Shown here piece after piece: positions 3,495 through 58,630 of a stretch of 64,000 nt of DNA (position 1 is the stretch's first letter; each line of letters opens with the position of its first letter). The translations under genes and the position numbers were made by a program. The notes below the pieces were generated by a model. The model saw nothing but the letters and a program-made list of their open reading frames with translations. It had not been told where the DNA came from and made no database searches. Source of the stretch: Minisyncoccota bacterium (lineage in GTDB: Bacteria > Patescibacteriota > Minisyncoccia > Phycocordibacterales > UBA9973); assembly GCA_041662525.1 (NCBI GenBank), contig JBAZSF010000002.1, forward strand, positions 3,121 to 67,120, written 5' to 3'.

Positions 3495-5171
3495 ATGAAA
3501 AACTTTTTAAATAAAATAAAATTATATATTCTTGCCCATAAAATTATCAGCATTATTGTGGTAATAATAATTTTATCATTAGGATATTGGATTTACGACA
3601 AGATCACTAGCACGACTGGTGATACACGTTACCTAACAGCCAAAGTGGAAAGAGGGGCAATAATATCTTCTATTTCTGGCAGTGGTCAAGTCTCGTCTTC
3701 GAACCAGGTAGACATAAAGGCTAAGGTATCTGGAGATGCTATTTATATAGCAGTCAAAAATGGACAAAAAGTATCTAAAGGCGCCCTAATTGCACAACTT
3801 GATAATACAGACGCTCAAAAATCCGTACGTGATGCAGAACTCAGTTTGCAGTCTGCAAAAATTTCTTTAGATAAATTAAAAATTCAAAACTCAAACGATA
3901 ATTTAAATGCTGACTTGGACAAGGCTTATGACGATGGTTTTAATGTCGTCTCTGATGCTTTTTTAGACTTACCATCAATCGTAACTGGACTTGAAAATCT
4001 TTTAGCTCAAAACAATCTTTCGGAGAATGCTGCGCGAATAAGCGGAAAAACTGCACAAAACTATAGAAGTGACGCTGAAACTGCATATTTTAATGCCAAA
4101 AAAGCATTTGATAGTAATAGAATATTTTACAGAACACTCAACCATAACTCCCCCACAGAAGATATAGATAAAATAATTAATCAAACCTACGAAACAACTA
4201 AGCTTGTAGCTGACGCAATAAAAAAACTCCGTAATTTTGTAGATTTTTTATCAGAAGATACAGGAAGGATTTCTGAATTTACTTCTTACCAAAACACACT
4301 TTCTACATACACAAATACAAACAACGGACATCTTGATAACCTTCTCACTACCACCACTAATATAAAAAATTATAAAGATGCTTTTCCTAACACCAGTCTG
4401 GATTTACAATCTGCGGAGCTCTCGATTCAACTGAAACAAAATGCTTTACAAGATGCAAAAGATAAACTTACAGATTATTTTATCCGTGCTCCATTTGATG
4501 GAATCTTGGCATCAGTAAATATTAAAAAAGCTGATTCTATTAATACAAGCACGGTTGTGGCGACACTTATTACAAAAACACAATTAGCTGAAATTTCTCT
4601 GAACGAGGTTGACGTAGCAAAAATAAAAATTGGTCAAAAATCTACTCTTACTTTTGATGCTATACCAGACCTTTCCATTTCTGGAGTGGTGGCAGAGATA
4701 GATACTATTGGAACAGTTTCACAAGGAGTTGTAACATACATTGTGAAAATAAGTTTTGACACTCAAGATGAAAGAATAAAATCAGAAATGAGTGTATCCG
4801 CTTCAATTATCACAGATATGAAACAAAATGTTTTAGTAGTGCCGAATAGTGCCATAAAATCCCTGCCCGCCAATTCAAGGGTGGGACAAGTTGGAAGAAA
4901 CTATGTTGAAAGTTTTGATACACCCTTGGCACTACCAACGGATAGATCAATAGGTTACATCTCAAAAATTAAACCGAATAAAATCCCAGTAGAAGTTGGT
5001 CTCACTAATGATAGTGATAGTGAAATTATTTCTGGAATTAAAGAAGGTGATGAAATAGTAATCAGAACCATCTTGCCTACAACAGCTACCCCCGCTACTA
5101 CTGCGCCTAGTCTCTTTGGTGGCACAGGAGGAAATAGAGGGAACACAAATACAAGAATCCAACCCAGATAG
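3495..5171 (+). CDS. Efflux periplasmic adaptor (HlyD/MacA-family membrane fusion protein)
   Basis: N-terminal TM, then biotinyl/lipoyl-like 'KVSGDAIYIAVKNGQKVSKGALIAQLD', long coiled-coil hairpin region and beta-barrel C-terminus. Directly precedes a MacB-like ATPase and permease. Confidence 0.75.
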   Translation: MKNFLNKIKLYILAHKIISIIVVIIILSLGYWIYDKITSTTGDTRYLTAKVERGAIISSISGSGQVSSSNQVDIKAKVSGDAIYIAVKNGQKVSKGALIAQLDNTDAQKSVRDAELSLQSAKISLDKLKIQNSNDNLNADLDKAYDDGFNVVSDAFLDLPSIVTGLENLLAQNNLSENAARISGKTAQNYRSDAETAYFNAKKAFDSNRIFYRTLNHNSPTEDIDKIINQTYETTKLVADAIKKLRNFVDFLSEDTGRISEFTSYQNTLSTYTNTNNGHLDNLLTTTTNIKNYKDAFPNTSLDLQSAELSIQLKQNALQDAKDKLTDYFIRAPFDGILASVNIKKADSINTSTVVATLITKTQLAEISLNEVDVAKIKIGQKSTLTFDAIPDLSISGVVAEIDTIGTVSQGVVTYIVKISFDTQDERIKSEMSVSASIITDMKQNVLVVPNSAIKSLPANSRVGQVGRNYVESFDTPLALPTDRSIGYISKIKPNKIPVEVGLTNDSDSEIISGIKEGDEIVIRTILPTTATPATTAPSLFGGTGGNRGNTNTRIQPR

Positions 5172-5196: not shown

Positions 5197-5883
5197 ATGA
5201 TAGAAATAAAAAATATTACAAAAATCTACAAAACAGGAGATGTCGAGTTTAAAGCATTGGATAATGTATCATTTACCGTCAACGACGGAGAATTTGTAGC
5301 CATCATGGGTCCATCAGGCAGTGGAAAATCAACCCTGATGCATATGCTGGGAGCGCTAGACATCCCAACTTCTGGAACATATTTATTAGACGACAAAGAT
5401 GTCTCCACTTTATCGGATGATGAACTTGCAGATATTCGTCGAGATAAAATTGGTTTTGTTTTTCAATCTTTTAATTTATTACCAAGAACAACAGTATTGC
5501 GCAATGTAATGCTACCTTTAATCTATGCCGGCGTACATGGTGCAGAAAGAATTGAAAGAGCAAAAAAAGCACTTAGGTCCTCAGGTTTGGATGAAAATCA
5601 TTTTTATCATATGTCTAATCAAATTTCTGGCGGTCAGATTCAACGTGTAGCGATAGCTAGAGCTTTGGTCAACAATCCATCGCTCATCTTAGCGGATGAA
5701 CCAACTGGAAATTTAGATTCAAAAACAGGAGAAATAGTAATTGACACTTTCCAAAAATTAAATAAAGAGTTAGGTCGTACCATTATTCTTATTACTCACG
5801 AACAAGAAGTAGCTGAACATGCTGATAGAATTCTTTTTATAAAAGATGGGAAATTAATTGAGGATAGAAAAACACACAAATGA
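5197..5883 (+). CDS. ABC transporter ATP-binding protein (MacB/LolD family)
   Basis: Walker A 'GPSGSGKST', signature 'LSGGQIQRVAIARAL', Walker B 'ILADEPTGNLD'. Confidence 0.9.
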   Translation: MIEIKNITKIYKTGDVEFKALDNVSFTVNDGEFVAIMGPSGSGKSTLMHMLGALDIPTSGTYLLDDKDVSTLSDDELADIRRDKIGFVFQSFNLLPRTTVLRNVMLPLIYAGVHGAERIERAKKALRSSGLDENHFYHMSNQISGGQIQRVAIARALVNNPSLILADEPTGNLDSKTGEIVIDTFQKLNKELGRTIILITHEQEVAEHADRILFIKDGKLIEDRKTHK

Positions 5884-7097
5884 AATTAGTTGATATCACA
5901 AATGAAACATATAGTTCACTTTCTGCAAACAAAGCACGTTCAGGTCTTACAATGCTCGGTATAGTTATCGGTATTGCTTCTGTAATTGCCATGGTCTCTA
6001 TCGGGAATGGTGCAAAAGTATCTATCCAATCGAGCATAGAAGGTCTGGGCTCCAATCTTCTAACAATCATTCCCGGAATAGTTCAACCAGGACGCGGAAT
6101 CGTATCTTCTGGACGTGGCGCAGCTCAAACACTTAAAAATGAAGACATCGATGTTGTAAAATCAATAGATGGAGTGGGAGCTGTTTCCCCCGAAGTTTCG
6201 AGTAGATTTCAAGTAGTAGCAAGTGGAAATAATACCAATACTACTATAACGGGGGCTACGCCGGATTATGCAAATGTGCATAATATTGCAGTTGCAAACG
6301 GAAGCTTTATCTCTGGTGCAAATCAAAGAAGCATCGGCCGACAAGCGGTGCTCGGTGCGACAGTGGCGACAGATTTATTTCCCGATCAGGACCTCGAAAG
6401 TATTTTAGGTAAAACTATTCGAATCAATAAAGTTAATTTTAATATTATTGGGATTTTAGTGGCAAAAGGAGGCGCTGGATTTTCTGGTCCAGATGATATG
6501 ATCTTTGTCCCCCTTTCGACAATGCAAAAAATTCTTTCCGGATTTGATTATCTTTCCATGATGGTAGTTTCTGTCACAGACAAAAATAAAATGACAGAGG
6601 TAAAAGATTTGATAACTAATGCCCTGTTAGACAAACATCGCATAGAAGAAGCCGATTTTTCAATAATTTCTCAAGAAGATATTTTAGGCACCTTAACCAC
6701 CGTAATAGACACTTTTACACTTTTCCTTGCGGCTATCGCTTCTATATCACTCTTGGTCGGAGGTATAGGAATTATGAATATGATGCTCACGACCGTTACT
6801 GAACGTACAAAAGAAATTGGTTTACGAAAAGCTATTGGGGCAAAAAGAAGCGACATCAACACGCAATTTCTCTCGGAGGCTGTAGTGCTCACTTTTATTG
6901 GGGGTTTTATAGGAATTATTTTAGGATGGCTGATCTGCTTGATAGTAACGTCAACTGGACTTGTAAAAACTCAAGTCTCAATCTCTTCTGTTCTTTTAGC
7001 TTTTGGTGTATCAACAGTTATCGGTATTATCTTTGGATACTACCCTGCCCGCCGAGCAGGCATGCTCAATCCAATTGATGCGTTAAGGTATGAGTAA
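5880..7097 (+). CDS. ABC transporter permease (FtsX/MacB-type, with periplasmic MacB_PCD-like domain)
   Basis: Start overlaps ATPase stop (ATGA). N-terminal TM, large extracytoplasmic domain, three C-terminal TMs with 'GGIGIMNMMLTTVTERTKEIGLRKAIGA' FtsX motif. Confidence 0.85.
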   Translation: MKLVDITNETYSSLSANKARSGLTMLGIVIGIASVIAMVSIGNGAKVSIQSSIEGLGSNLLTIIPGIVQPGRGIVSSGRGAAQTLKNEDIDVVKSIDGVGAVSPEVSSRFQVVASGNNTNTTITGATPDYANVHNIAVANGSFISGANQRSIGRQAVLGATVATDLFPDQDLESILGKTIRINKVNFNIIGILVAKGGAGFSGPDDMIFVPLSTMQKILSGFDYLSMMVVSVTDKNKMTEVKDLITNALLDKHRIEEADFSIISQEDILGTLTTVIDTFTLFLAAIASISLLVGGIGIMNMMLTTVTERTKEIGLRKAIGAKRSDINTQFLSEAVVLTFIGGFIGIILGWLICLIVTSTGLVKTQVSISSVLLAFGVSTVIGIIFGYYPARRAGMLNPIDALRYE

Positions 7098-7098
7098 T

Positions 7099-7216
7099 TG
7101 TGAATTATGAAACATAACTTTTCGCGGGGTTTCGAGGCTGACGAGCCGAGAACTTCAGGATTTTTTAAGCTTCAAAAAATCTGTACCGAAGAAAAGTTTA
7201 TGTTTTGTAATTCAAA
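7099..7216 (+). mobile_element. MITE-like element sharing terminal inverted repeat TGTGAATTATGAAAC with element at 10189-10330; interior homologous (reverse complement) to 15236-15300
   Basis: 5' end 'tgtgaattatgaaac' right after macB stop; degenerate 3' end 'gttttgtaattca'. Internal 'gctgacgagccgag' shared with repeat family R1. Confidence 0.4.
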
Positions 7217-7217
7217 A

Positions 7218-7322
7218 TAAAAAAACCAAACAAATTATCTTTCTTTTTTCAGGTCCTCGGTTCTCCGGGTCCCTATCTCGGCCAGACCATGAAAAAATAA
7301 AATAATTTGTTTGGTTTTTTTT
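7218..7322 (+). repeat. 18-bp perfect inverted repeat (aaaaaccaaacaaattat / ataatttgtttggttttt) whose loop carries a copy of the GGTCTGGCCGGGATAGGGACCCGGAGAACCGAGGACC element (reverse orientation)
   Basis: Read directly; the loop element matches the in-frame inserts in ksgA (58276-58312) and pcrA (59694-59730). Confidence 0.5.
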
Positions 7323-8587
7323 TATTTTCTAATAGAATAATTACCAGTGGCTATCCATTTATAGGTAGTCATTTCTTTCGGACCCATGGGACCACGAGCG
7401 TGGATTTTAGAGGTGGAAATGCCAATCTCTGAGCCAAGTCCAAAGATAGCACCATCGGAGAATCTAGTAGAAGCATTTACGTAAACTACGGCCGCGTCTA
7501 CTTCATCTAAGAATTTCTGACAATTTTTTTTATCTTCCGAAAGAATTGCTTCAGAGTGTTTGGAAGAATATTTATTAATATGTTTTATTGCTTCATCCAC
7601 ATTAGAAATAATTTTTACGGACATTTTTTGACTTAAAAACTCTCGCCCAAAATCTTCTGCTCTTGCTTTTTTTAAAAGATTAACTGGATAACATTTTTTT
7701 AATATTTCAAAACTCCTTAAATCAGCAAAAATCTCTACTTCTTTTTGGATTAACAATTCAGAAACCATAGGAAGAAATTTTTCTGCTATTTCGCTGTGTA
7801 CTAATAGTGTATCTAAAGAATTACAAACACTTGGACGTTGTGTTTTGGCATTAAAAATAATTTTGGCGGATGCATCAAGTCTAGAAGAAACGTCCACAAA
7901 AGTATGACAAACTCCAGCGCCTGTTTCGATCACTGGTACTGTAGCGTTTTCTCTCACAAAATTTATCAAACTAGAGCTTCCTCTTGGGATAATTACATCC
8001 ACCAAACCATTGGCCGAAATAATATCTAAAACAGCATCTTTTATTTTTGGATCTATAAATTGAACAACTTCAGGATCCACCCCAGAAGACATTAGAACAT
8101 TTTTTATAATTTTATGAAGAATTATATAACTTTCTCTTGCCTCCTTCCCTCCTTTAAGTATCACCGAATTGCCAGACTTGATACAAATCGCAGATACATC
8201 CGTGGTCACATTGGGTCGTGATTCATAGATAACACCGATTAACCCTATTGGCACTCTCTTTTTGCAAATTTTTAATTCTTTATTTTCTTTACTATTTCGA
8301 CAATCAAAAACCTCACCAATTGGATCTGGCATATTTATCAAACTTTCTATTTCTTTAGCCATACTTTCAATACGTGCATCATTTAAAAGCATACGGTCAC
8401 GCATCGGATCACTTGGTGGAAGTTTTTTTAAATCTTTAGAATTCGCCATAATAATTAATTTTTTATTTTTACGCAATTCTTTGGCTAAATTTTTCAAAAT
8501 TAAAATTCTTTTAGCATGAGACAAAAGTCCGAATTTAAGAGATGCTACTTTTGCTTTATTTAATTGTTTTAATATGTTCTTATTCAT
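7322..8587 (-). CDS. proA: Gamma-glutamyl phosphate reductase
   Basis: Aldehyde dehydrogenase fold with ProA-typical 'VPIGLIGVIYESRPNVTTD' and 'SNVDEAIKHINKYSSKHSEAI'; last gene of the proB-proC-proA operon. Confidence 0.9.
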   Translation of the reverse strand: MNKNILKQLNKAKVASLKFGLLSHAKRILILKNLAKELRKNKKLIIMANSKDLKKLPPSDPMRDRMLLNDARIESMAKEIESLINMPDPIGEVFDCRNSKENKELKICKKRVPIGLIGVIYESRPNVTTDVSAICIKSGNSVILKGGKEARESYIILHKIIKNVLMSSGVDPEVVQFIDPKIKDAVLDIISANGLVDVIIPRGSSSLINFVRENATVPVIETGAGVCHTFVDVSSRLDASAKIIFNAKTQRPSVCNSLDTLLVHSEIAEKFLPMVSELLIQKEVEIFADLRSFEILKKCYPVNLLKKARAEDFGREFLSQKMSVKIISNVDEAIKHINKYSSKHSEAILSEDKKNCQKFLDEVDAAVVYVNASTRFSDGAIFGLGSEIGISTSKIHARGPMGPKEMTTYKWIATGNYSIRK

Positions 8588-10114: not shown

Positions 10115-10188
10115 ATAAATACTCTAGCTCAATAATTTATTATCTGCAAATACGTAATAATGCTATACTAACTGAAATTTAAAATAAA

Positions 10189-10330
10189 CTGTGAATTATG
10201 AAACTTGTCGCAGGCGCAGTTTTCTGGAAGCATTGCGCAGGATGACGATCCGAGCATAGCAAAAAATCAGTAGATTTTTATGTGTGCTGACAGAAAACTT
10301 GTGCCAAGAAAGAGTTTCGTAATTCACAGT
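10189..10330 (+). mobile_element. MITE-like element, 142 bp, with 16-bp terminal inverted repeats CTGTGAATTATGAAAC / GTTTCGTAATTCACAG; interior is a diverged copy of repeat family R1
   Basis: TIRs read directly; internal 'ttgcgcaggatgacgatccgagcatagcaa' aligns with R1 'ttgcgcaggctgacgagccgagcagttcgctggcatagcaa'. Confidence 0.55.
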
Positions 10331-12882: not shown

Positions 12883-12915
12883 CAAAAAGCCCCCAAATAT
12901 GGGGGCTTTTTGTTT
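12883..12915. terminator. Bidirectional intrinsic terminator (gcccccaaatatgggggc hairpin flanked by A-run and T-run)
   Basis: Between convergent csp (+) and thioredoxin-like (-) genes. Confidence 0.7.
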
Positions 12916-12921
12916 TTTATT

Positions 12922-13200
12922 CTATTGATCGAATTCTTCTCCCTTCGCCCACTTCTTTAATATCTCATAATCCGTATCTCCGCAAATAAATTTCTTTGTT
13001 TGTGTATTATAGAAAAAAGGAACTCCACCACACAATTCTCCATTATCAATGGATAGTAATTTCTTTTCGTTTTCTTTATTATGCCAGACTTCTAATTTTT
13101 CTACTTTTACCCCCTCCTCTTTTTCTAAACGTTCCACTAGCTCGTGCATAGTGACACAATGTGGGCATTCAGTTCCATAAAATTCTAATAAATGATTCAT
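12922..13200 (-). CDS. Thioredoxin-fold protein, glutaredoxin-like (CPHC active site)
   Basis: 'FYGTECPHCV' CxxC motif, ~90 aa, second Cys pair 'GELCGG'. Confidence 0.7.
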   Translation of the reverse strand: MNHLLEFYGTECPHCVTMHELVERLEKEEGVKVEKLEVWHNKENEKKLLSIDNGELCGGVPFFYNTQTKKFICGDTDYEILKKWAKGEEFDQ

Positions 13201-13227
13201 AAAAATGAAAGAAATTTTATTTGTTAT

Positions 13228-13300
13228 TTAGAAAGCCTTGCGACCAGCTCTCGAGCCGAGCAGTTCGCTGGCATAGCAATGCCAGATAGATTGCTTTATA
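13228..13300 (+). repeat. Repeat family R1 copy (…GCCTTGCG-CCAGCTCTCGAGCCGAGCAGTTCGCTGGCATAGCAATGCCAGATAGATTGCTTTATA)
   Basis: Near-identical to copies at 15110-15205 and 43467-43556; contains hairpins ctggcat-agca-atgccag and gcaat-gccagatag-attgc. Confidence 0.6.
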
Positions 13301-13318
13301 AATAGCAAATCAAATTTC

Positions 13319-13582
13319 TTAATTAACCAACTTTGATAAGCGAGATTTCTTGCGAGCGGCATTGTTCTTCTTGATCACCCCTTTTTGCGCGGATTTGTCT
13401 ATCGCCTGAAAAGCAAGTGAGAGCATTTTTCTAGCTTCGGCTTTACCTGTTTCCTTGTTTGTTTTGACAACTTTCTCGATTTTCTTGATTATTTCTTTCA
13501 TTACCTTCTTGCGTTGGTCATTAAAAGCCTTCTTGCGAAGAGAACCTCGGATTGCTTTTTTAGCTGATTGTGTTATTGGCAT
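13319..13582 (-). CDS. rpsT: 30S ribosomal protein S20
   Basis: 'MPITQSAKKAIRGSLRKKAFNDQRKK...' basic 87-aa protein matching bS20. Confidence 0.85.
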   Translation of the reverse strand: MPITQSAKKAIRGSLRKKAFNDQRKKVMKEIIKKIEKVVKTNKETGKAEARKMLSLAFQAIDKSAQKGVIKKNNAARKKSRLSKLVN

Positions 13583-13635
13583 TTATGCAATATAGCAAAA
13601 AACCCAAAAAAATGCAATTATGCTATCATTAATTT

Positions 13636-14223
13636 ATGATTGGAAGCATTAAAGGAAAAATCATATTAAAAACAGACAAATTCCTGATCGTGGAAACGGG
13701 CGGGGTTGGCTATAAAATAAGTGTCTCCCCTGATGTACTAGCCAAGCTTGCCCCTCGACTGCGCTCGGGACAAAATGAAACAGACACTGTTTCATTTTGG
13801 ATACACACTCATGTACGAGAAGACGCTTTAGACTTGTATGGATTTTTAGAACGTTCAGAATTGGAATTTTTCGAAATGCTAATAAATATATCTGGCATAG
13901 GACCAAGGTCTGCCTTAGCAATTTTAGGAATTGCTTCAATTGAAACATTAAGAAAAGCTATTGGGACTGGAGACACTTCATATCTCACAAAAATATCAGG
14001 CATTGGTAAAAAAACTGCAGAAAGAATTGTAATTGAACTACGCGACAAAATGGGAACAAATTTAGAAGGAAGTTCCTTGCAGGGAGAATTAGACGCATTA
14101 GAAGCGCTTAAGTCTCTCGGCTATTCTCAAAACGAAGCACGTGAAGCATTAAAAAAAGTTACTCCTGATGCCAGCACCAATATAAAAATAAAAGAAGCGC
14201 TAAAAATTTTAGGAAATAAGTAA
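13636..14223 (+). CDS. ruvA: Holliday junction branch-migration complex subunit RuvA
   Basis: 'MIGSIKGKII...VETGGVGYKISV' OB domain, HhH 'ISGIGPRSALAIL', C-terminal domain III. Confidence 0.9.
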   Translation: MIGSIKGKIILKTDKFLIVETGGVGYKISVSPDVLAKLAPRLRSGQNETDTVSFWIHTHVREDALDLYGFLERSELEFFEMLINISGIGPRSALAILGIASIETLRKAIGTGDTSYLTKISGIGKKTAERIVIELRDKMGTNLEGSSLQGELDALEALKSLGYSQNEAREALKKVTPDASTNIKIKEALKILGNK

Positions 14224-14232
14224 ATAAAAACT

Positions 14233-15096
14233 ATGCCTGAGCTTCCAGAAGTTGAAACAACCACAAGGGGCCTAAGAAAAACGGTAGTAGGTCTCACAAT
14301 AAAAAATGTCTGGACTGATTTAGCAACAAAAGATAAACGCAAGACAGACAGTGTGGCCAATCCTAAATTTTTCAAAATTTTCAAGAAAGAAATTCTAAAT
14401 AAAAAAATTATATCAGTAGAAAGGCGTGCAAAAAATATTCTCATAAATCTTTCTGGCAAAAAAGAAACACAGCAAACTATTCTTATTCATCTAAAAATGA
14501 CCGGCTATTTATTTTATGGCAAAGATCCAGAAATTAAATTCGCACATGTAATTTTTACTTTAAGTAATAGTTATTATTTAATTTTTTCGGATATGCGTAA
14601 ATTCGGAAAGATAACTCTACTGGATACTAAAATTGCGCACGACAGTAAGCATTTAAATAATATCGGACCGGAACCACTTGATAAAAATTTCACTTTACCT
14701 AAATTAAAAGAACGTTTAAATAAAAAACCTACAGGTAAAATAAAAACCGTTTTAATGAATCAGGGAATCATAGCTGGTATTGGTAATATTTACTCGGATG
14801 AAATCCTCTGGCATGCTAACGTGCATCCAGAGAGAAAAGTTTCTACACTAAAAAATTCAGAAATTAAATTAATATTTAAAGCAATAAAAGAAACTCTCAA
14901 AAAAGGTATTGATTTCGGTGGAGATTCAATGTCAGATTATAAAAATATTTATGGCTTGCCTGGTAAATTCCAACTACACCATGAAGCATATAGACGCACT
15001 GGAGAAAAATGCAGAAAAAAAAATTGTAAAGGTATAATAATAAGAAAAGTTATAAATAGCCGCAGCGCACACTTTTGTGATACTCATCAAAAATAA
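14233..15096 (+). CDS. mutM: Formamidopyrimidine-DNA glycosylase (Fpg/Nei family)
   Basis: N-terminal 'MPELPEVE', H2TH region, C-terminal zinc finger 'CRKKNCKGIIIRKVINSRSAHFCDTHQ'. Confidence 0.9.
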   Translation: MPELPEVETTTRGLRKTVVGLTIKNVWTDLATKDKRKTDSVANPKFFKIFKKEILNKKIISVERRAKNILINLSGKKETQQTILIHLKMTGYLFYGKDPEIKFAHVIFTLSNSYYLIFSDMRKFGKITLLDTKIAHDSKHLNNIGPEPLDKNFTLPKLKERLNKKPTGKIKTVLMNQGIIAGIGNIYSDEILWHANVHPERKVSTLKNSEIKLIFKAIKETLKKGIDFGGDSMSDYKNIYGLPGKFQLHHEAYRRTGEKCRKKNCKGIIIRKVINSRSAHFCDTHQK

Positions 15097-15109
15097 GAGA
15101 ATATAAAAT

Positions 15110-15205
15110 TTAGAAAGCCTTGCGCAGGCTGACGAGCCGAGCAGTTCGCTGGCATAGCAATGCCAGATAGATTGCTTTATAGATTTTGATATTTTCTTAT
15201 TTTTG
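15110..15205 (+). repeat. Repeat family R1 copy (full: TTAGAAAGCCTTGCGCAGGCTGACGAGCCGAGCAGTTCGCTGGCATAGCAATGCCAGATAGATTGCTTTATAGATTTTGATATTTTC)
   Basis: Almost base-for-base identical to 43467-43556. Confidence 0.6.
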
Positions 15206-15235
15206 AATTCTAAAATTATAGAATCAAAATTTTTG

Positions 15236-15300
15236 TCGGTACAGATTTTTTGAAGCTTAAAAAATCCTGAAGTTTGCTCGCCGTCGCTCGCAAAACCCCT
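15236..15300 (+). repeat. Repeat homologous (reverse complement) to interior of MITE-like element at 7114-7200
   Basis: 'cggtacagattttttgaagcttaaaaaatcctgaagtt' is the exact reverse complement of 7151-7188. Confidence 0.5.
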
Positions 15301-15313
15301 TAAAAACTTTATT

Positions 15314-15793
15314 CTATAATTTTAAAATCCTAAAAAGTGCTATCCCTATCGCGACAGAAACATTTAACGATTCTTTTTTGCCTCGCATGGGAATTTCAGC
15401 AATTATATCGCATTTTTTTAGATTGCTCTTGGAAATTCCAGCCACTTCTTCCCCAACCAAGAATGCATTTTTATTTTGCAATTTAACCTTTTTATAATCA
15501 ACAGATTTTTTATCTTGCTCTATCCCGATAATTAAAAATTTTTCTTTCTTTAATTTAGTAAGTAATGTGGAGATACTTTTTTTCTGTTCCCAAGGCACGA
15601 ACTCTTCTGCACCCAAGGCAGATTTTGCCAGGTCTCCCCTCTTCCTACCAAATCGATCGAGTGGTGTCGGCGTATAACCCGTCAAATAAATTTTATTTAT
15701 TCCCGCCGCATCAGCCGTACGAAACATCGCTCCGACATTTTCTACGCTTCGAATGTTGTGCAGTATTAAAATATTTTTCTGTATTTTTTTCAT
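15314..15793 (-). CDS. SpoU/TrmH-family RNA 2'-O-methyltransferase
   Basis: SPOUT motifs 'NVGAMFRTADAAG', 'FLVGEEVAGIS', 'IPMRGKKESLNVSVAIGIALF'. Confidence 0.8.
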   Translation of the reverse strand: MKKIQKNILILHNIRSVENVGAMFRTADAAGINKIYLTGYTPTPLDRFGRKRGDLAKSALGAEEFVPWEQKKSISTLLTKLKKEKFLIIGIEQDKKSVDYKKVKLQNKNAFLVGEEVAGISKSNLKKCDIIAEIPMRGKKESLNVSVAIGIALFRILKL

Positions 15794-17081: not shown

Positions 17082-19700
17082 TTACTTTTTCAAAACTCTT
17101 TTTAAATATTTCCCAGTATAACTTTTTGCATTATTTGCTACTTCTTCTGGTGTCCCCTTAGCAACAATATTACCTCCATTTATCCCGCCTTCCGGGCCGA
17201 TGTCTATAATATAATCAGAGCTTTTTACTATATCGAGATTGTGTTCAATCAAGACAACAGTATTACCATGAGACACTAGTTTATTTAAAACTTCTAAGAG
17301 TTTTTGCACATCATCATAATGAAGCCCCACAGTCGGTTCATCTAAAAGATAGATTGTTTTTTCTAAATGTGGACGATAAAGCTCACTACTGATTTTTACC
17401 CGTTGCGCTTCTCCGCCAGAGAGCGTCGTAGCTGATTGGCCAAGCTCTAAATAACCGAGCCCAACTTCAAAGAGAGTTTGTAACCTATCAAAAATTGCTG
17501 GAATATCTTTAAAAAATATTAATCCATTTTCTACGGTCATATTCAGCACTTCATAAATATTTTTTTTCTTATATTTTACAGTGAGTGTCTCTTTGTCAAA
17601 ACGTTTTCCATTACAAACATCACAAGTAACATAAACCGTCGGTAAAAAATGCATTTCTACAGCAATTTCCCCATTCCCTTCACATGCTTCACAACGACCA
17701 CCCTTCACGTTAAAAGAAAAACGGTTCGCTTTCCAACCTCGCAAACGTGCTTCTTCGGTTGTAGCAAAAAGATCTCGGATATGCGTAAAAGCGCCAGTAT
17801 AAGTGGCAATATTTGAACGTGGAGTCCTGCCTATGGGTGACTGATCGATCAAAATGACTCTCGACAAATATTCAGTCCCCGAAAATGAAGAGCAATTAAA
17901 AATTTTGGCTGTACGATATTTTCGTTCATAGCGAGCTTGAAGATTTTTATAAAGAATCTCATACATCAAAGAACTTTTTCCAGAACCAGAAACTCCAGTA
18001 ATAGAAGTCATAACACCTAGGGGCACTTCCACATTCAAATTATTTATATTAAAAATTTTTCCACCAGTAATACGAAGTGCTCCCTTGCCCCCTCGACGTT
18101 TTTTAGGAATTTCTATTTTTGTTTCACCGCGCAGATAACTAAGCGTTCTAGAATTATTTGTGTTCTTTTTTGCAGTTAATAAATCTTCAAGATAACCAGA
18201 AACAATAACTTCTCCACCATGGACTCCTGCTTTAGGACCAATGTCCACTATATAATCCGAAGCATAAATAGTATCTTCATCATGTTCTACTATTAAGATA
18301 GTATTTCCTAGATCTCGTAGATTTTGTAATGTTTTTATGAGTCTATCATTATCACGCTGATGAAGCCCAATGGTCGGCTCATCTAATACATAAAGTGCTC
18401 CTACGAGTCTCGATCCAAGCTGAGAAGCCAAGCGAATACGTTGTGCTTCTCCGCCAGAGAGAGTGTTTGCTTTACGAGAAAGCTGTAAATAATCCAACCC
18501 AACATCCAACATAAATTGAAGTCTGGCTTCTATCTCACGAACAACTGGCACAGATATTTCTTTTTCTTGTTCCGAAAGTTTTAAATTTTTAAAAAAATCA
18601 TAGGCATCTTTTATAGAAAGAGAAGCAAGGTCTAAAATATTTATGCCTCTAGAGGTCGGACCTCGGACTCCTTTGAGGTCCGACCTCTCTAGGAACACAT
18701 TCAAGGCTTCCGGACGAAGTCGCGCCCCATGACAAGTCTCACATGGCTCATCTCCCATAAAATATTTTGAACCAAGACCATTACAAGTAGGACAGGCGCC
18801 ATAAGGAGAATTAAAAGAAAACAATCTCGGTTCTACTTCTGGAAATGAAAAACCATCATTTTTACAAGCAAATTTTGCTGACATAATAAACTCTTCTTCG
18901 TTGATTCTTATAGTAACCAATCCGTCCGACTCAAGAAGCGCCCTCTCTAAAGCTTCAGAAAGACGCATTCTACTGCCATCTTTATTATCTACGAACTCAT
19001 GTACTGCAAAATGATCTACCAAAATATCAATATTATGAGCTTTATTTTTAGAAAGAGTAATTTGTTCGCGTAACTTTTTCATTACCCCATCGAGACGAAT
19101 CTCTGAAAAACCTTTTCCAAGTAAATCATAAAGTAATTGATAGTATTCACCTTTTCGTCCACGAACTATAGGAGAAAAAATACTTATTTCCGTTTCATCC
19201 CATTCTACACCCATAACTTTTTTATTCTTCTTTGAATTTTTACTTAATGTATTTATTTTCTCTAAAACAAAATTTAAAATTTCTTCATTGGAAAGTTTTT
19301 TTATTTCTTCTCCACATAAAGGACAATGTGGATGCCCGATGCGCGCATACATCACTCGCAAGTAATCATAAATTTCTGTAATAGTCGCCACCGTCGATCG
19401 CGGATTATTAGAACGAGATTTTTGATCAATCGAAATTGCTGGTGAAAGTCCTGTGATTTCATCCACGTCTGGCTTTGGCATTTGATTCAAAAATTGTCGA
19501 GCATAAGAAGAAAGGGACTCCACATATCGGCGTTGCCCTTCAGCGAAGATGGTATCAAAAGCCAAAGATGATTTTCCAGAACCAGAAACCCCAGTGATGG
19601 CTATCATCTTATTGCGTGGCATTTCCACTGAAATATTCTTCAGGTTATGTGTCCTAGCCCCTTTGACCCTTATTATGTCTATGTTTTTTTCTATTTTCAT
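17082..19700 (-). CDS. uvrA: Excinuclease ABC subunit A
   Basis: Two ABC modules (Walker A '[10 protein letters not shown]' x2, signatures 'LSGGEAQR' x2) with zinc-finger Cys clusters. Confidence 0.95.
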
Positions 19701-41586: not shown

Positions 41587-41910
41587 ATGCTTCCTAAAAA
41601 AAATAGAGTGAGCACCAAAGAAGTAGACAAGATCTTTAAAGAAGGCAGATTCTTTGTTTCCCCTAGTTTTACTTTTAAATACTTAAAAAGTACCAATAAA
41701 GGGGTAAAAATTTCCTTTATAGCTCCAAAAAGTGTAGCCAAACTTGCTGTTAAGAGAAATTTGCTAAGACGTCGAGGATATACAGCCCTTGCTAAGCATA
41801 TAGATCAATTCCCTTCTGGGCTTATGGGTGTTTTTATATTTAAAAAATATCAAGATGATATTTCTGTAATTGAAGATGAAATTAAAAATATACTTACAAA
41901 AATTAATTAG
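41587..41910 (+). CDS. rnpA: Ribonuclease P protein component
   Basis: 'LPKKNRVSTKEVDKIFKEGRFF…KRNLLRRR' with the RNR motif; follows rpmH. Confidence 0.85.
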   Translation: MLPKKNRVSTKEVDKIFKEGRFFVSPSFTFKYLKSTNKGVKISFIAPKSVAKLAVKRNLLRRRGYTALAKHIDQFPSGLMGVFIFKKYQDDISVIEDEIKNILTKIN

Positions 41911-42181
41911 TCCCGTTAGAAGCAGGTCTCCCCAAGGTGACCGAAGCACTCGCTTACTAGCGAGGGCGGCTTCTAACGGGATTAGCTTTTATCAAAAACA
42001 TATTTCTATTTTTTTGAAACCCAGTTGTGTTTTTTACCCTACTTGTTCAGAATACACAAAACAATCGATAGAAAAGTACGGCGCTTTAAAGGGTATTTAT
42101 TTAGGATTTTTACGTATATTACGTTGCCATCCTTGGCAGAAAAACCACATTGACCCCGTCACTCGCGAGCGACAGGGTTGA
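41870..42181 (+). CDS. yidD: Membrane protein insertion efficiency factor YidD, with in-frame palindromic insertion near N-terminus
   Basis: 'FYQKHISIFLKPSCVFYPTCSEY…RILRCHPW…DPV' matches YidD; 'PVRSRSPQGDRSTRLLARAASNGIS' is extra between 'LIS' and 'FYQ'. Confidence 0.75.
   Translation: MKMKLKIYLQKLISPVRSRSPQGDRSTRLLARAASNGISFYQKHISIFLKPSCVFYPTCSEYTKQSIEKYGALKGIYLGFLRILRCHPWQKNHIDPVTRERQG
41912..41980. repeat. Palindromic element (12-bp perfect IR CCCGTTAGAAGC / GCTTCTAACGGG with inner hairpin ctcgct-tacta-gcgag) inserted in-frame at the 5' end of yidD
   Basis: Read directly; corresponds to the non-conserved 25-aa segment of YidD. Confidence 0.55.
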
Positions 42182-42961: not shown

Positions 42962-43447
42962 ATGGAGAAAGAAGAAATCCAAAATTTAATAAAAGAATTA
43001 ATTGAAAAAACCACAGTAAAATTAAATAAAATTTCAATTATTGATGATAAACCTAAAAATATATGGGTTTCTGTGGAAGTTAGTGAACCACATTTTTTTA
43101 TTGGGCGTGAAGGTGAAGGTTTGCATGCATTGAGTTATCTTGTTCACAGAATCATAGAATCAAAAAATCCTCGCAATGATGTAAAGACAACGGAACCACA
43201 AGGATTAGGTGTTATTATAGATATAAATGGTTTTCAAAAAAAACATGTTGAGAGTATTCGCGCAATAGCTCATATGATGTCAGAAAGAGCGAGATATTTT
43301 AAGTCTAATATTGAAATTGATCCAATGTCTGCATTTGAGCGTAGGATCGTGCATGAATTTTTGTCTGAAGCAAATGATTTAAAAACTGAGTCTGTGGGCT
43401 TTGGGCGTGATCGCCGAGTGGTGATTAAATATATTGGGGTTATGTAA
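42962..43447 (+). CDS. jag: Jag/KhpB-like RNA-binding protein (KH + R3H domains)
   Basis: R3H 'FERRIVHEFLSE…GFGRDRRVVIKY'; conserved position after yidC. Confidence 0.85.
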   Translation: MEKEEIQNLIKELIEKTTVKLNKISIIDDKPKNIWVSVEVSEPHFFIGREGEGLHALSYLVHRIIESKNPRNDVKTTEPQGLGVIIDINGFQKKHVESIRAIAHMMSERARYFKSNIEIDPMSAFERRIVHEFLSEANDLKTESVGFGRDRRVVIKYIGVM

Positions 43448-43466
43448 GAAAAAGAAAATATAAAGT

Positions 43467-43556
43467 TTAGAAAGCCTTGCGCAGGCTGACGAGCCGAGCA
43501 GTTCGCTGGCATAGCAATGCCAGATAGATTGCTTTATAAATTTTGATATTTTCTTT
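43467..43556 (+). repeat. Repeat family R1 copy
   Basis: Identical core to 15110-15205. Confidence 0.6.
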
Positions 43557-43560
43557 TTCT

Positions 43561-44952
43561 TTATTTTAAAGCGAGCTCCCAAAGAAAAGAATCTTTTTTA
43601 TTCACAAAAAATAAATAGTCCTCACTACTATCTAATGCAAGTTTGATACTATCGACGTCTTCCCCACCTAGAGCGACAGGGTCTGCAATCATTGTTGTAT
43701 TTCCAGTTTTAATATCTATTTTCCAAATTCGATCTCTAAAAAAAGTTTCTCCTTGATACCAGCTATCCGGATATTGGCCGTTAGGAATAGTGGTTGGTAC
43801 TCCACAATAAACAACATCATTAGTTTTATTCCAAACACATTTTTCCGCCAATGTTCTCACCCCCAACGTATTGGAAACTTTTGTATCTGTATGATAAATA
43901 TTAAGTGATAAGGTGTCATTGCTATAAAGAACCAGTTTCCCATTAGGACTAGTGAGAGTAGTAAGCCCATTTACAGCACCTAATATTTTGTGAAAATTAT
44001 AGTTTTTATTATTTGGGTCCATAGCGTACATATATCCAGGGATTCCAAATGAAGGTTTGGTGGTGAAAGTAATCATTTTATTATTTGGAAATAAGGACAA
44101 CCATTCAGTGAAAGGTGAATCAAAAACCTGAACTTTTTTATTATTTAATAAATTAAGTGTTGTACCAATTATGTTGTCTCCTAAATTATTTCCCAAATTA
44201 TTCCCACTGCTAAACATATAAAAAATACTATTAGAATCACTTGATAGACTTAAATCTTTTATGTTTTCCGGGAGGAACACCCCTTTTATTTCATTACTAC
44301 TCGTGGTGTCTGCGCCAAGAAATTCTTTTGGTAAAGTACCGACAAAAGTTATAATCGTTTTAGCATCTGATTTTAAATATCGCATAATTACAGAATTCCC
44401 TTTGTTTCCAAAAAATGCTTCATAAACCTTTGGTATTATTGTGGTAGAAAATTTCTTTTCTTCTATTTTGTCTACAAAGGTTTGATATATATTTCCTGTA
44501 GCTCTTTCTATATATCTTAAAGCTGGCATAAATTCTGTTGGAGGTGGAGTTGGCTTGGTTGTTTTTGTAGTAGTTGTTGTCTTTGGAGGAATTATTAAAC
44601 CTGTTGCTGGATCAATTTCTGGCGCTACCACAGGGATTTCTTTCAATCTTTCTTTGGAAAATACGGTAAAACCCGCGATAGGCATGCTCGAAACCTTTTT
44701 TAATTTTATGTTTGTCTCTGGTGTTGTAGAAATTTGTCCATCTCCAGAGATATCCACTGGGGGTGTGGTATTCGTGGGGGGCTTTGTTGAATTATTTCCA
44801 AATGGATTAAATTGTGAAATAAAATTTGTACCCGTGCTGTCTTCTCCTGGTGTATTTGTATTTGTTCCTGGATTGAAATAAAAATATCCAAATAATGTAC
44901 TTATTCCGATGACGATGATTATTATTAAAAGTATAAAATTTCTTTTTGACAT
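43561..44952 (-). CDS. Hypothetical secreted protein: N-terminal anchor, Pro/Thr-rich linker, beta-rich C-terminal domain
   Basis: 'ILLIIIIVIGISTLFGYFYF' then 'TTTTKTTKPTPPPTE' linker; first gene (3' end) of the T4SS-like minus-strand cluster. Confidence 0.5.
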   Translation of the reverse strand: MSKRNFILLIIIIVIGISTLFGYFYFNPGTNTNTPGEDSTGTNFISQFNPFGNNSTKPPTNTTPPVDISGDGQISTTPETNIKLKKVSSMPIAGFTVFSKERLKEIPVVAPEIDPATGLIIPPKTTTTTKTTKPTPPPTEFMPALRYIERATGNIYQTFVDKIEEKKFSTTIIPKVYEAFFGNKGNSVIMRYLKSDAKTIITFVGTLPKEFLGADTTSSNEIKGVFLPENIKDLSLSSDSNSIFYMFSSGNNLGNNLGDNIIGTTLNLLNNKKVQVFDSPFTEWLSLFPNNKMITFTTKPSFGIPGYMYAMDPNNKNYNFHKILGAVNGLTTLTSPNGKLVLYSNDTLSLNIYHTDTKVSNTLGVRTLAEKCVWNKTNDVVYCGVPTTIPNGQYPDSWYQGETFFRDRIWKIDIKTGNTTMIADPVALGGEDVDSIKLALDSSEDYLFFVNKKDSFLWELALK

Positions 44953-57708: not shown

Positions 57709-58630
57709 AAGCTAAGATTATCCAATCTTCGAGAGTTAAATCTTCCGCTCTTTTATTTTTCAAATCTGCCAAAGCAAGGCTTTGGCAGACGTTCTTTAAA
57801 TTACTCGAGAGCTTTTTTCTTTTGTGTGCGAATCCCGCTTTTACTATTTCCCAAAATTTTTCTTCGAAGATCTGATTGTTCAAAGATTTATTTTGAACAG
57901 TCCCGTTGCCTCCCTCTCTTTTATAAGGAGAGGGTTGGGGTGAGGTGAATTTTTCCCTCGAAATATTTTTTATTGAAATAATAGCCGAATCAACTTTTGG
58001 TGCGGGTGAAAAATATCTTTTATCAACTTTCATTATCATTTTTGGCTCTCCATAAGCTTTGACAGAAATCGAAAGGATACTTTCTTTTACCCTGAGCGGA
58101 GTCGAAGGGTTGCTTCCCTTTCCCACTATTCTTTTGGCAACTTCATGTTGTACCATTAATACCATGAGCTCTGGTTGATGTAATCCCCCTAGAAATTTTT
58201 TCAAAATTGCGCCAGTAATATTGTAAGGGATGTTGGCGATGATTTTAAAATCAGGTGATTCAAAGTTTTTGGAATGGTCTGGCCGGGATAGGGACCCGGA
58301 GAACCGAGGACCTGAGAAAAACTTTTGAATCACCTGATTTATATTAAAATCAAGGATATCCTCATTTATCAAAATTAATTTATTTTCTAAAATTTCTTTT
58401 TCAAATTTCTCTTTTAAAAATTCAAAAAGTTCACGGTCTTTTTCTACCGCGATAACAGTTCCAGATTTTTCTAAAAGTTTTTTTGTTAAAGCCCCCTTCC
58501 CTGGTCCTATTTCTAAAATTACATCATCTGATTTGATTTCCCCTGCTTCAATAATTTTTCGTAGAGCCAACTCTGATTTTAAAAAATTTTGCCCTAATGA
58601 TTTTTTTGCTTTATGATTTTTTATTTGCAT
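57677..58630 (-). CDS. rsmA: 16S rRNA (adenine1518/1519-N6)-dimethyltransferase RsmA/KsgA with two in-frame repeat insertions
   Basis: 'SLGQNFL', 'ILEIGPGKGALT', 'IANIPYNITG'; extra segments 'GPRFSGSLSRPDHSKNF' and 'SPQPSPYKREGGNG' coincide with repeat copies. Confidence 0.85.
   Translation of the reverse strand: MQIKNHKAKKSLGQNFLKSELALRKIIEAGEIKSDDVILEIGPGKGALTKKLLEKSGTVIAVEKDRELFEFLKEKFEKEILENKLILINEDILDFNINQVIQKFFSGPRFSGSLSRPDHSKNFESPDFKIIANIPYNITGAILKKFLGGLHQPELMVLMVQHEVAKRIVGKGSNPSTPLRVKESILSISVKAYGEPKMIMKVDKRYFSPAPKVDSAIISIKNISREKFTSPQPSPYKREGGNGTVQNKSLNNQIFEEKFWEIVKAGFAHKRKKLSSNLKNVCQSLALADLKNKRAEDLTLEDWIILASKAGKNQPLE
57905..57955. repeat. Hairpin repeat (ccctctc…gagaggg, family of 2466-2545) in-frame inside rsmA
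   Basis: Read directly. Confidence 0.45.
58276..58312. repeat. GGTCTGGCCGGGATAGGGACCCGGAGAACCGAGGACC element in-frame inside rsmA
   Basis: Identical core to 59694-59730 and (reverse) 7252-7288. Confidence 0.6.

Follow-up and report, generated by a model that had tools for sequence, protein, structure and literature searches.

Classical MITEs are defined by termini that a transposase recognises, together with target-site duplications, and REP sequences are palindromes of 20-40 nt with a GTAG head, which occur in clusters and are associated with RAYT. In Correia elements, the terminal inverted repeats are conserved and 26 bp long, the target duplication is TA and an IHF site is present; these elements are typically not found as in-frame inserts in ORFs. 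Small ribozymes are often tied to repeated or mobile sequences as well, and the core motifs of the hammerhead are CUGANGA, GAAA and a UH cleavage site. The genomes of Patescibacteria are among the smallest and most streamlined of bacteria. The transcript hairpins of Correia elements are cleaved by RNase III, their inversion has been reported, and they influence the expression of neighbouring genes (PMC10969869). The same source summarises the Rickettsia palindromic elements (RPEs; Ogata et al. 2000) as in-frame insertions in ORFs (PMC10969869).

Here, a repeat named R1 was analysed in a stretch of 64,000 nucleotides from a Minisyncoccota bacterium (contig JBAZSF010000002.1), referred to below as the window. 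R1 is probably one subtype of a non-autonomous, palindromic repeat family specific to Patescibacteria, whose behaviour is, by analogy, closest to that of the RPEs. Members of this family move, invert, become homogenised, are tolerated in frame within ORFs and are held under constraint. Other readings, as a functional RNA, a folded single-stranded DNA signal or a terminator, are partly compatible with this explanation and are weighed below.

Copies of R1 in the window and its relatives in Patescibacteria

The original prediction described three near-identical copies of the repeat, which was borne out by the 42-nt core GAGCCGAGCAGTTCGCTGGCATAGCAATGCCAGATAGATTGC, as it matched the window at exactly three positions (13253, 15134 and 43491, all on the plus strand) and gave 0 matches in shuffled sequence. 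The segments 15089-15209 and 43446-43566 were 93% identical over 121 nt. The copy near 13228 had a core of about 75 nt in common with the other type-A copies, and differed from them by one extra base, by a variant second hairpin (GCGACCAGCUCUCGAGCC) and by its outer arms and flanks. The unit size of about 95 bp proposed at first was too small, the actual units being imperfect palindromes of 112-143 nt. The diverged copy that had been placed within a 'MITE' at 10189-10330 was a genuine relative (covariance model, 51 bits, E 3e-10), and two extra diverged copies, absent from the earlier description, were detected at 7114-7201 (+) and 15200-15336 (-). In total, the window held six copies (three of type A, one of type B and two of type C), and the R1 family occupied about 1% of its length:

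7101-7214, plus strand: type-C copy (model match 7114-7201); covariance model 32.6 bits, E 1.4e-5
10188-10330, plus strand: type-B copy (the 'MITE' copy); fold -66.6 kcal/mol, z -9.9; 51.1 bits, E 3e-10
13209-13320, plus strand: type-A copy 1, full hairpin; fold -39.9 kcal/mol, z -5.5; 93.8 bits
15087-15206, plus strand: type-A copy 2, full hairpin; fold -47.6 kcal/mol, z -6.9; 105.5 bits
15200-15336, minus strand: second type-C copy, 73% complementary to 7116-7225 over 110 nt; fold -40.3 kcal/mol; weak model score of 10.6 bits
43446-43561, plus strand: type-A copy 3, full hairpin; fold -44.7 kcal/mol, z -6.2; 106.4 bits
13233-13297 (copy 1), 15115-15178 (copy 2) and 43472-43535 (copy 3), plus strand: three-way-junction core, supported by covariation on 102 copies

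Neighbouring genes were named from Pfam matches and from the gene calls of the source contig. The three type-A copies had been placed immediately 3' of genes, and this held for the copies at mutM and jag. The stop codon of mutM (TAA 15094-15096) lies inside the outer stem of copy 2, whose core is sense to that gene, and copy 3 occupies the entire gap from the jag/KhpB stop (TAA 43445-43447) to the stop (43561-43563) of a convergent 463-aa ORF. The copy at 13228 did not follow this description. It spans the gap between the start of a thioredoxin-like ORF (ATG 13198-13200; ORF 12922-13200, 92 aa) and the stop of rpsT (13319-13321; gene 13319-13582), both encoded on the minus strand, and its core is antisense to both.

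Among the diverged copies, that of type B separates proB (minus) from a divergently transcribed pseudouridine synthase gene (plus). The type-C copy at 7101-7214 is located directly 3' of a 405-aa ORF (5880-7097) and retains AGGCUGACGAGCCGAG; it has the outermost arm GTGAATTATGAAAC / GTTTYGTAATTCA in common with the type-B copy at 10188-10330, but their cores differ. The second type-C copy is directly 3' of a SpoU methylase gene (minus, 15314-15793) and abuts type-A copy 2, so that each of the two convergent genes, mutM and SpoU, has its own sense-oriented element.

Beyond the window, the exact pattern AAGCNTTGCGN{8,9}CGANCCGAGCA was scanned over one genome per species (185,579 species). Of the 96 loci obtained with this 19-base pattern, whose exactness inflates the apparent conservation of the core and may under-sample diverged members, about 75 belonged to Patescibacteria (Nomurabacteria, Paceibacterota, Moraniibacteriota, Minisyncoccia and MAGs labelled Saccharibacteria), so the copies are not restricted to the window; the remaining 20 or so were high-GC chance matches, mostly to one actinobacterial coding gene. 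A covariance model derived from 30 type-A copies was then run over the window and 82 loci and gave 102 matches at E < 0.001 in 671 kb of loci. Four subtypes could be distinguished, with elements of approximately 110-170 nt: A, which is R1; B, that of the window 'MITE' copy; C, that of two window copies; and D, which is G+C-rich. Types C and D surfaced in the run of the covariance model. Carriage by phages was rejected, as the pattern gave 0 matches in a viral contig collection. No description of such elements in Patescibacteria or in the candidate phyla radiation was found in the full-text literature, and the family is apparently undescribed.

Other repeats were observed in the window. At 41907-41984 (-), a weak match to the model (19.8 bits, E 0.03) corresponds to a G+C-rich imperfect palindrome upstream of yidC, at the junction of the ORFs 41587-41910 and 41870-42181, and this palindrome is possibly a further hairpin element, diverged or unrelated, located within or between ORFs. 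A second, unrelated palindromic family is present at 7214-7326, 58253-58336 and 59679-59743, with a G+C-rich core (GGTCTGGCCGGGATAGGGACCCGGAGAACCGAGGACC) that shows 89-93% identity among the copies and, in one orientation, has AT-rich inverted arms on either side; the 7214-7326 copy of this family abuts a type-C element. Peptides such as GREGSQRPSASNG are inserted in TsaD and UvrD of relatives. Direct repeats include a tandem of 159 nt (171-329 and 354-512, 90% identical), a nearby 56-nt pair (765-820 and 828-883), the pair 59556-59665 / 60549-60658 (80% identical) and the pair 17401-17480 / 18439-18518 (73% identical). The last of these lies inside an 872-aa ORF (17082-19700) and may represent an internal duplication of a coding domain, since the counterpart of this ORF in the relative L098 matches UvrA_inter.

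Fold, covariation and constraint

Each copy consists of a long variable stem (about 20-35 bp) topped by a conserved three-way junction of approximately 65 nt. In the minimum-energy folds, a long AT-rich stem closes a multiloop with two hairpins, at -40 to -67 kcal/mol (z -5.5 to -9.9 against shuffles), and repeat and fold together uphold the original description of a structured, repeated intergenic element. The helix P1 (AAAGC/GCUUU) closes the junction and runs outward into the variable stem. P2 is nearly invariant and has the general form N-(U)-UGC / GCA-N', a 3x2 internal loop (GCA/GA) and GGCU-GNCG-AGCC with its GNCG loop; in copy 2 it reads UGC-GCA-GGCU-GACG-AGCC-GA-GCA. P3, a hairpin of 7 bp with an AGCA loop, is free in sequence and reads CUGGCAU-AGCA-AUGCCAG in copy 2. 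Of the two hairpins proposed at the outset, ctggcat-agca-atgccag is thus real and covaries in relatives, whereas gcaat...attgc found no support, as only 64.8% of its cells pair, without covariation, and it overlaps the first hairpin.

When the 30 type-A copies were aligned, 97.5% of cells were paired and five of the seven P3 pairs were compensatory. In the alignment of the 102 model matches, which was fitted to the covariance model and leans to the model's own structure, 95.8% of cells were paired, compared to 37-50% with the partners slid, and 27 of 29 pairs showed compensatory changes; the same compensations were visible in the raw sequence listing, outside the model-fitted alignment. P3 was paired in 99.4% of cells in these matches, with up to four pair types per position. 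In P2, GGCU/AGCC was replaced by GGAU/AUCC (the variant carried by the type-B copy of the window), GGUU/AACC, GGGU/ACCC, GGCC/GGCC or GGCG/CGCC, and UGC/GCA by CUC/GAG, while the N17-N42 pair was either C-G or A-U. Covariation across relatives, suggested at the start as a check on the element, was present in 27/29 pairs on 102 copies, and Rfam held no matching family.

Near-invariant nucleotides close to the junction combined with freely covarying stems are the usual signature of a functional RNA, and a long insertion of variable length is tolerated in the distal P2 of one copy (L069), as would be expected if the junction were a functional structured RNA, with a specific partner (protein, RNase or ligand) or with an activity of its own, maintained by host selection and with mobility as a secondary or past trait. 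Against this reading stands the lack of any Rfam match, known self-cleaving ribozymes included. With Rfam 15 at the gathering threshold, only tRNA matches were obtained in the whole window and in 12 loci with subtypes A, B and D (type C being represented in the window), and a permissive E-value scan of 15050-15350 returned only chance-level microRNA or CRISPR matches. None of the hammerhead, twister, twister-sister, pistol and hatchet families reached threshold. A hammerhead-like reading of CUGACGAG was also discarded, as its fourth base is variable in relatives (CUGNCGAG) and the segment is a covarying hairpin.

The sense strand folded better than the antisense in 73 of 82 copies (p 3e-13), although these copies share one core and are not independent. 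In the variable arms, with G-T and A-C both scored symmetrically as mismatches, G-U exceeded A-C by 65:34 in intergenic copies and by 37:16 in copies within ORFs. This one-strand excess points to one strand being under selection in single-stranded form, whether as RNA or as DNA. It is what a functional RNA would leave, but G-T wobble is tolerated in DNA too and covariation requires only intramolecular pairing, so the pairing data fit equally well with an element that acts as single-stranded DNA, its junction being recognised by an enzyme for folded single strands and its hairpin forming in replication or DNA uptake. For that alternative, the systems compared were REP/RAYT, the palindromic elements derived from IS200/IS605 and integron attC sites, and the architecture of R1 is unlike that of REP (short, with a GTAG head) and of attC (in which structure is conserved and sequence is not).

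Constraint was assessed by comparing the window with its relative L098, in which MutM is 86% identical. At four-fold degenerate sites the two were 54% identical (312/573), whereas two orthologous non-coding elements were 87% (core 92%) and 82% identical, with their differences concentrated at compensating stem positions. The functional constraint raised in the original prediction is thus supported, both by the compensatory changes and by the 82-92% identity of orthologous copies against 54% at four-fold sites; the same contrast favours a functional RNA. Orthologous copies inside ORFs were 89% identical at third codon positions of the core, compared to 47% for the host gene, although this identity is partly a matter of ascertainment, as the loci were found with the exact pattern; positions outside both the search pattern and P3 were 85% identical. 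Amino-acid identity of the insert in the core was no higher than that of the host protein. P3 in these orthologous ORF copies stays paired with different sequences, a further point in favour of a functional RNA.

Conserved third positions in the core, a peptide no better conserved than its host and the 85% identity outside the pattern together show that constraint acts on nucleotides and pairing and not on the peptide. In the same sequence comparisons, the core changes several times more slowly than synonymous sites. The conservation of orthologous copies fits a host function at least as well as a selfish element, which should decay at resident sites. For a mobile palindromic family, the explanation that we prefer, the core would be kept by selection either because the agent that propagates or converts the copies recognises it or because of a host-level function, and the arms would need only to pair.

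Gain, loss, inversion and genomic context

The mobility considered in the original prediction was supported by copies that are present or absent between syntenic relatives. L098 has the rpsT-site and mutM-site copies and lacks those of types B and C, the type-B site being an empty syntenic gap of only 66 nt. L099 (MutM 81% identical) is without any copy: trx and rpsT are 16 nt apart, and mutM and the convergent SpoU methylase gene share 20 nt at their 3' ends (4836-4855), compared to the gap of 217 nt, filled by two elements, that separates mutM and SpoU in the window. The rpsT site is also occupied in L098/L070, L006, L014 and L067, and the site 3' of mutM in L098, L014 and L085. Such gains and losses between close relatives speak against a functional RNA.

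When filled and empty sites of the window, L098 and L099 were compared, no consistent direct repeat was detected, the junctions being AT-rich and diverged so that a short duplication is possible, and neither a transposase nor a conserved terminal repeat was found. An origin of the arms by inverted duplication of the target site, considered for the type-C insertion near mutM, was rejected on two grounds: the arms of its type-C sibling at 7101-7214 are homologous, and no comparable relation exists between the type-B insertion and its own empty site. Many other genomes have in common an outer layer, YTCGTYGCAGGCGTAC...GTATGCCAAGAAAGAR, that differs from the outermost arm of the type-B and type-C window copies and in which an asymmetric internal loop is conserved; the elements give the impression of being built in layers or modules.

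The flanks of the element in uvrD are colinear between L068 and L094, with 80-81% identity, but the 55-nt core matches at 30/55 positions in direct and at 45/55 in inverted orientation. Therefore, the core was flipped in place between its arms, with the reading frame kept. P3 is identical in the three type-A copies of the window and takes two different forms in the rpsT-site and mutM-site copies of L098, which indicates that copies were homogenised within the lineage of the window. Homogenisation among copies is an event at the level of DNA, and in-place inversion, like the independence from the direction of transcription described below, fits a DNA-level process; these three features favour the single-stranded DNA alternative. 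For this alternative, however, neither a conserved cleavage motif nor a target sequence came to light, and the copies found in pairs within one locus were co-oriented in 10 of 16 cases, with no clear replication-strand bias, so that we regard it as rather improbable.

With respect to the flanking ORFs, as given by crude gene calls (ORFs of at least 90 aa), the intergenic copies were distributed as 15 convergent, 11 divergent, 9 tandem-sense and 12 tandem-antisense, with no preference of orientation, and about one quarter of them were antisense to both neighbours. A position 3' of genes is consequently not a rule of the family, as intergenic copies lack orientation bias and many relatives are inside ORFs. 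The random intergenic orientation argues against a strand-specific role in host mRNAs, yet the core is asymmetric and conserved. It also weighs against a functional RNA, as do the type-D copies that occupy ORFs in either orientation, the flipping of the core between relatives and the lack of a conserved promoter: a scan of the three type-A copies yielded no promoter-like site. On balance, we consider it unlikely that R1 is primarily a functional RNA.

As many as 26 copies lie inside long ORFs with the frame open through the element. They occupy eight or more sites, in tsaD (two), uvrD/pcrA (two), fmt, rsmA, a glmM-like gene and a rluA-like gene, and would add peptides such as SIAQADEPSIANFQQK to the host proteins TsaD, UvrD, Fmt and RsmA. 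The original prediction had not foreseen such in-frame inserts in essential genes. Against solved structures of TsaD and Fmt, the inserts stand out as additional segments, of about 32 and about 26 residues, respectively. Type-B copies in ORFs are always sense and in the same frame, giving ...SIAQADEPSIANFQQKIMCG..., in contrast to the type-D copies mentioned above. Coding capacity as the cause of the constant orientation of type B was not supported, as this type has about one open frame per orientation.

Proteins with an R1-type insert also carry other repeat-like in-frame inserts in L017 and L021 (TsaD) and in L052 (UvrD), one example being REKENQTFPGRNFFTKKFAQSSGRRPAESRQSLFSFS, which adjoins a type-B insert; ORFs in these genomes thus seem to be colonised by several families of elements. 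Consensus DnaA boxes (TTATCCACA / TGTGGATAA) were observed within about 40 nt of type-B copies in L020, L063, L071 and L075, and one conserved insertion site may thus be in or beside the replication origin region.

Four of the six window copies abut stop codons, two of the four filling the gap between convergent genes, and in both directions the stems have an A-rich tract on their 5' side and a U-rich tract on their 3' side. Such placement would suit elements that are primarily bidirectional terminators or stabilisers of 3' ends, recruited and kept for that role, with the junction as the top of the hairpin, and so would the retention of the rpsT-site and mutM-site copies across several species and the lack of any other terminator-like hairpin in the gaps. 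A simple scan for a hairpin followed by a U tract, however, gave 0 terminator-like sites in 12900-15450 and 43300-43700, so that the element itself is not called and the terminator suggested in the original prediction was not detected in its classical form; the element is a branched structure and its own U-rich tract is paired. Termination as the primary role also leaves the conservation of the asymmetric core unexplained, and many copies are in essential ORFs or between divergent genes, where it would be harmful or pointless. This explanation is accordingly the one to which we give very little probability.

For a mobile palindromic family, a 3'-end role would instead be a by-product of the long stem. 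The window copies that reach the stops of mutM, jag, rpsT and the convergent genes would most probably form 3'-end hairpins, and these would terminate or shield adjacent transcripts coming from either side. Because the stems reach the stop codons and no other terminator-like hairpin was found in 12900-15450 and 43300-43700, such hairpins are the most likely local effect of the element.

A bolder proposal, which we find doubtful although possible, is that the three-way junction constitutes a new functional module of Patescibacteria, in the form of a folded single-stranded DNA signal or of an RNA that is active itself or has a dedicated protein partner. This module would be selected by the host at dozens of sites per genome, including essential genes, and spread and renewed by hairpin-guided insertion, conversion and inversion.

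Comparison with known palindromic elements

The streamlined genomes of Patescibacteria appear to carry several families of hairpin repeats. If the preferred explanation is true, in-frame selfish insertions in essential genes are not peculiar to Rickettsia and recur in another host-dependent lineage with reduced genomes. The invariant junction with covarying stems, its slower-than-synonymous evolution and its in-place inversion would make the element a testable candidate for a new structured RNA or a new mode of spreading. On a practical level, the elements lengthen proteins such as TsaD, UvrD, Fmt and RsmA, and in MAGs they can mislead gene calling, the assignment of orthologues and assembly.

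Two classes of functional element were compared with R1. Hammerhead-type RNAs resemble it in their compact three-way junction, near-invariant junction nucleotides and freely covarying stems. Nevertheless, their core motifs are not in the right arrangement here and no Rfam ribozyme scores, and translation through essential ORFs argues against efficient self-cleavage. Intrinsic terminators are simple G+C-rich hairpins followed by a U tract, an organisation that R1 does not have.

Like MITE, ERIC and REP families, R1 is short, non-coding, multi-copy and hairpin-forming, and is polymorphic for presence and absence (six copies in the window, with types B and C absent from L098 and all absent from L099); some such families are transcribed with their neighbours. 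In contrast to MITEs, the termini are here the least conserved part and the conserved part is internal: the arms pair, but their sequences differ by subfamily (AAGAAAATATAAA..., AAGAAATTTTATTTG..., ACTGTGAATTATGAAAC..., TCGTCGCAGGCGTAC...) and do not form conserved terminal inverted repeats. Compared to REP and BIME, the units are of 110-170 nt, without the GTAG head, and dispersed singly. We know of no MITE, ERIC or REP family in which a three-way junction covaries and is conserved throughout a candidate superphylum.

The Correia or NEMIS elements of Neisseria are closer in being small palindromic repeats near genes, with long transcript hairpins and inversion. The 26-bp termini, the TA duplication and the IHF site are not evident in R1, whose termini vary: TAAGA at the start and TCTTA at the end are seen in copies 2 and 3, but not in copy 1 or in the copies of types B and C.

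The closest behaviour is that of the RPEs. They are also palindromic repeats of about 100-150 bp in the small genomes of host-dependent bacteria, without a known coding partner, and are both intergenic and, unusually often, present as in-frame open inserts in unrelated housekeeping genes, to which they add a peptide segment, at insertion sites common to related species; in-frame palindromic inserts in housekeeping ORFs were found here as the 26 copies at eight or more sites described above. The likeness is an analogy by behaviour and implies no membership, as the hosts are Patescibacteria in one case and Alphaproteobacteria in the other and no sequence relationship is expected. R1 differs from the RPEs in its conserved internal three-way junction with terminal arms that vary, in a constraint that demonstrably acts on nucleotides and pairing and not on the peptide, and in the inversion of its core in place.
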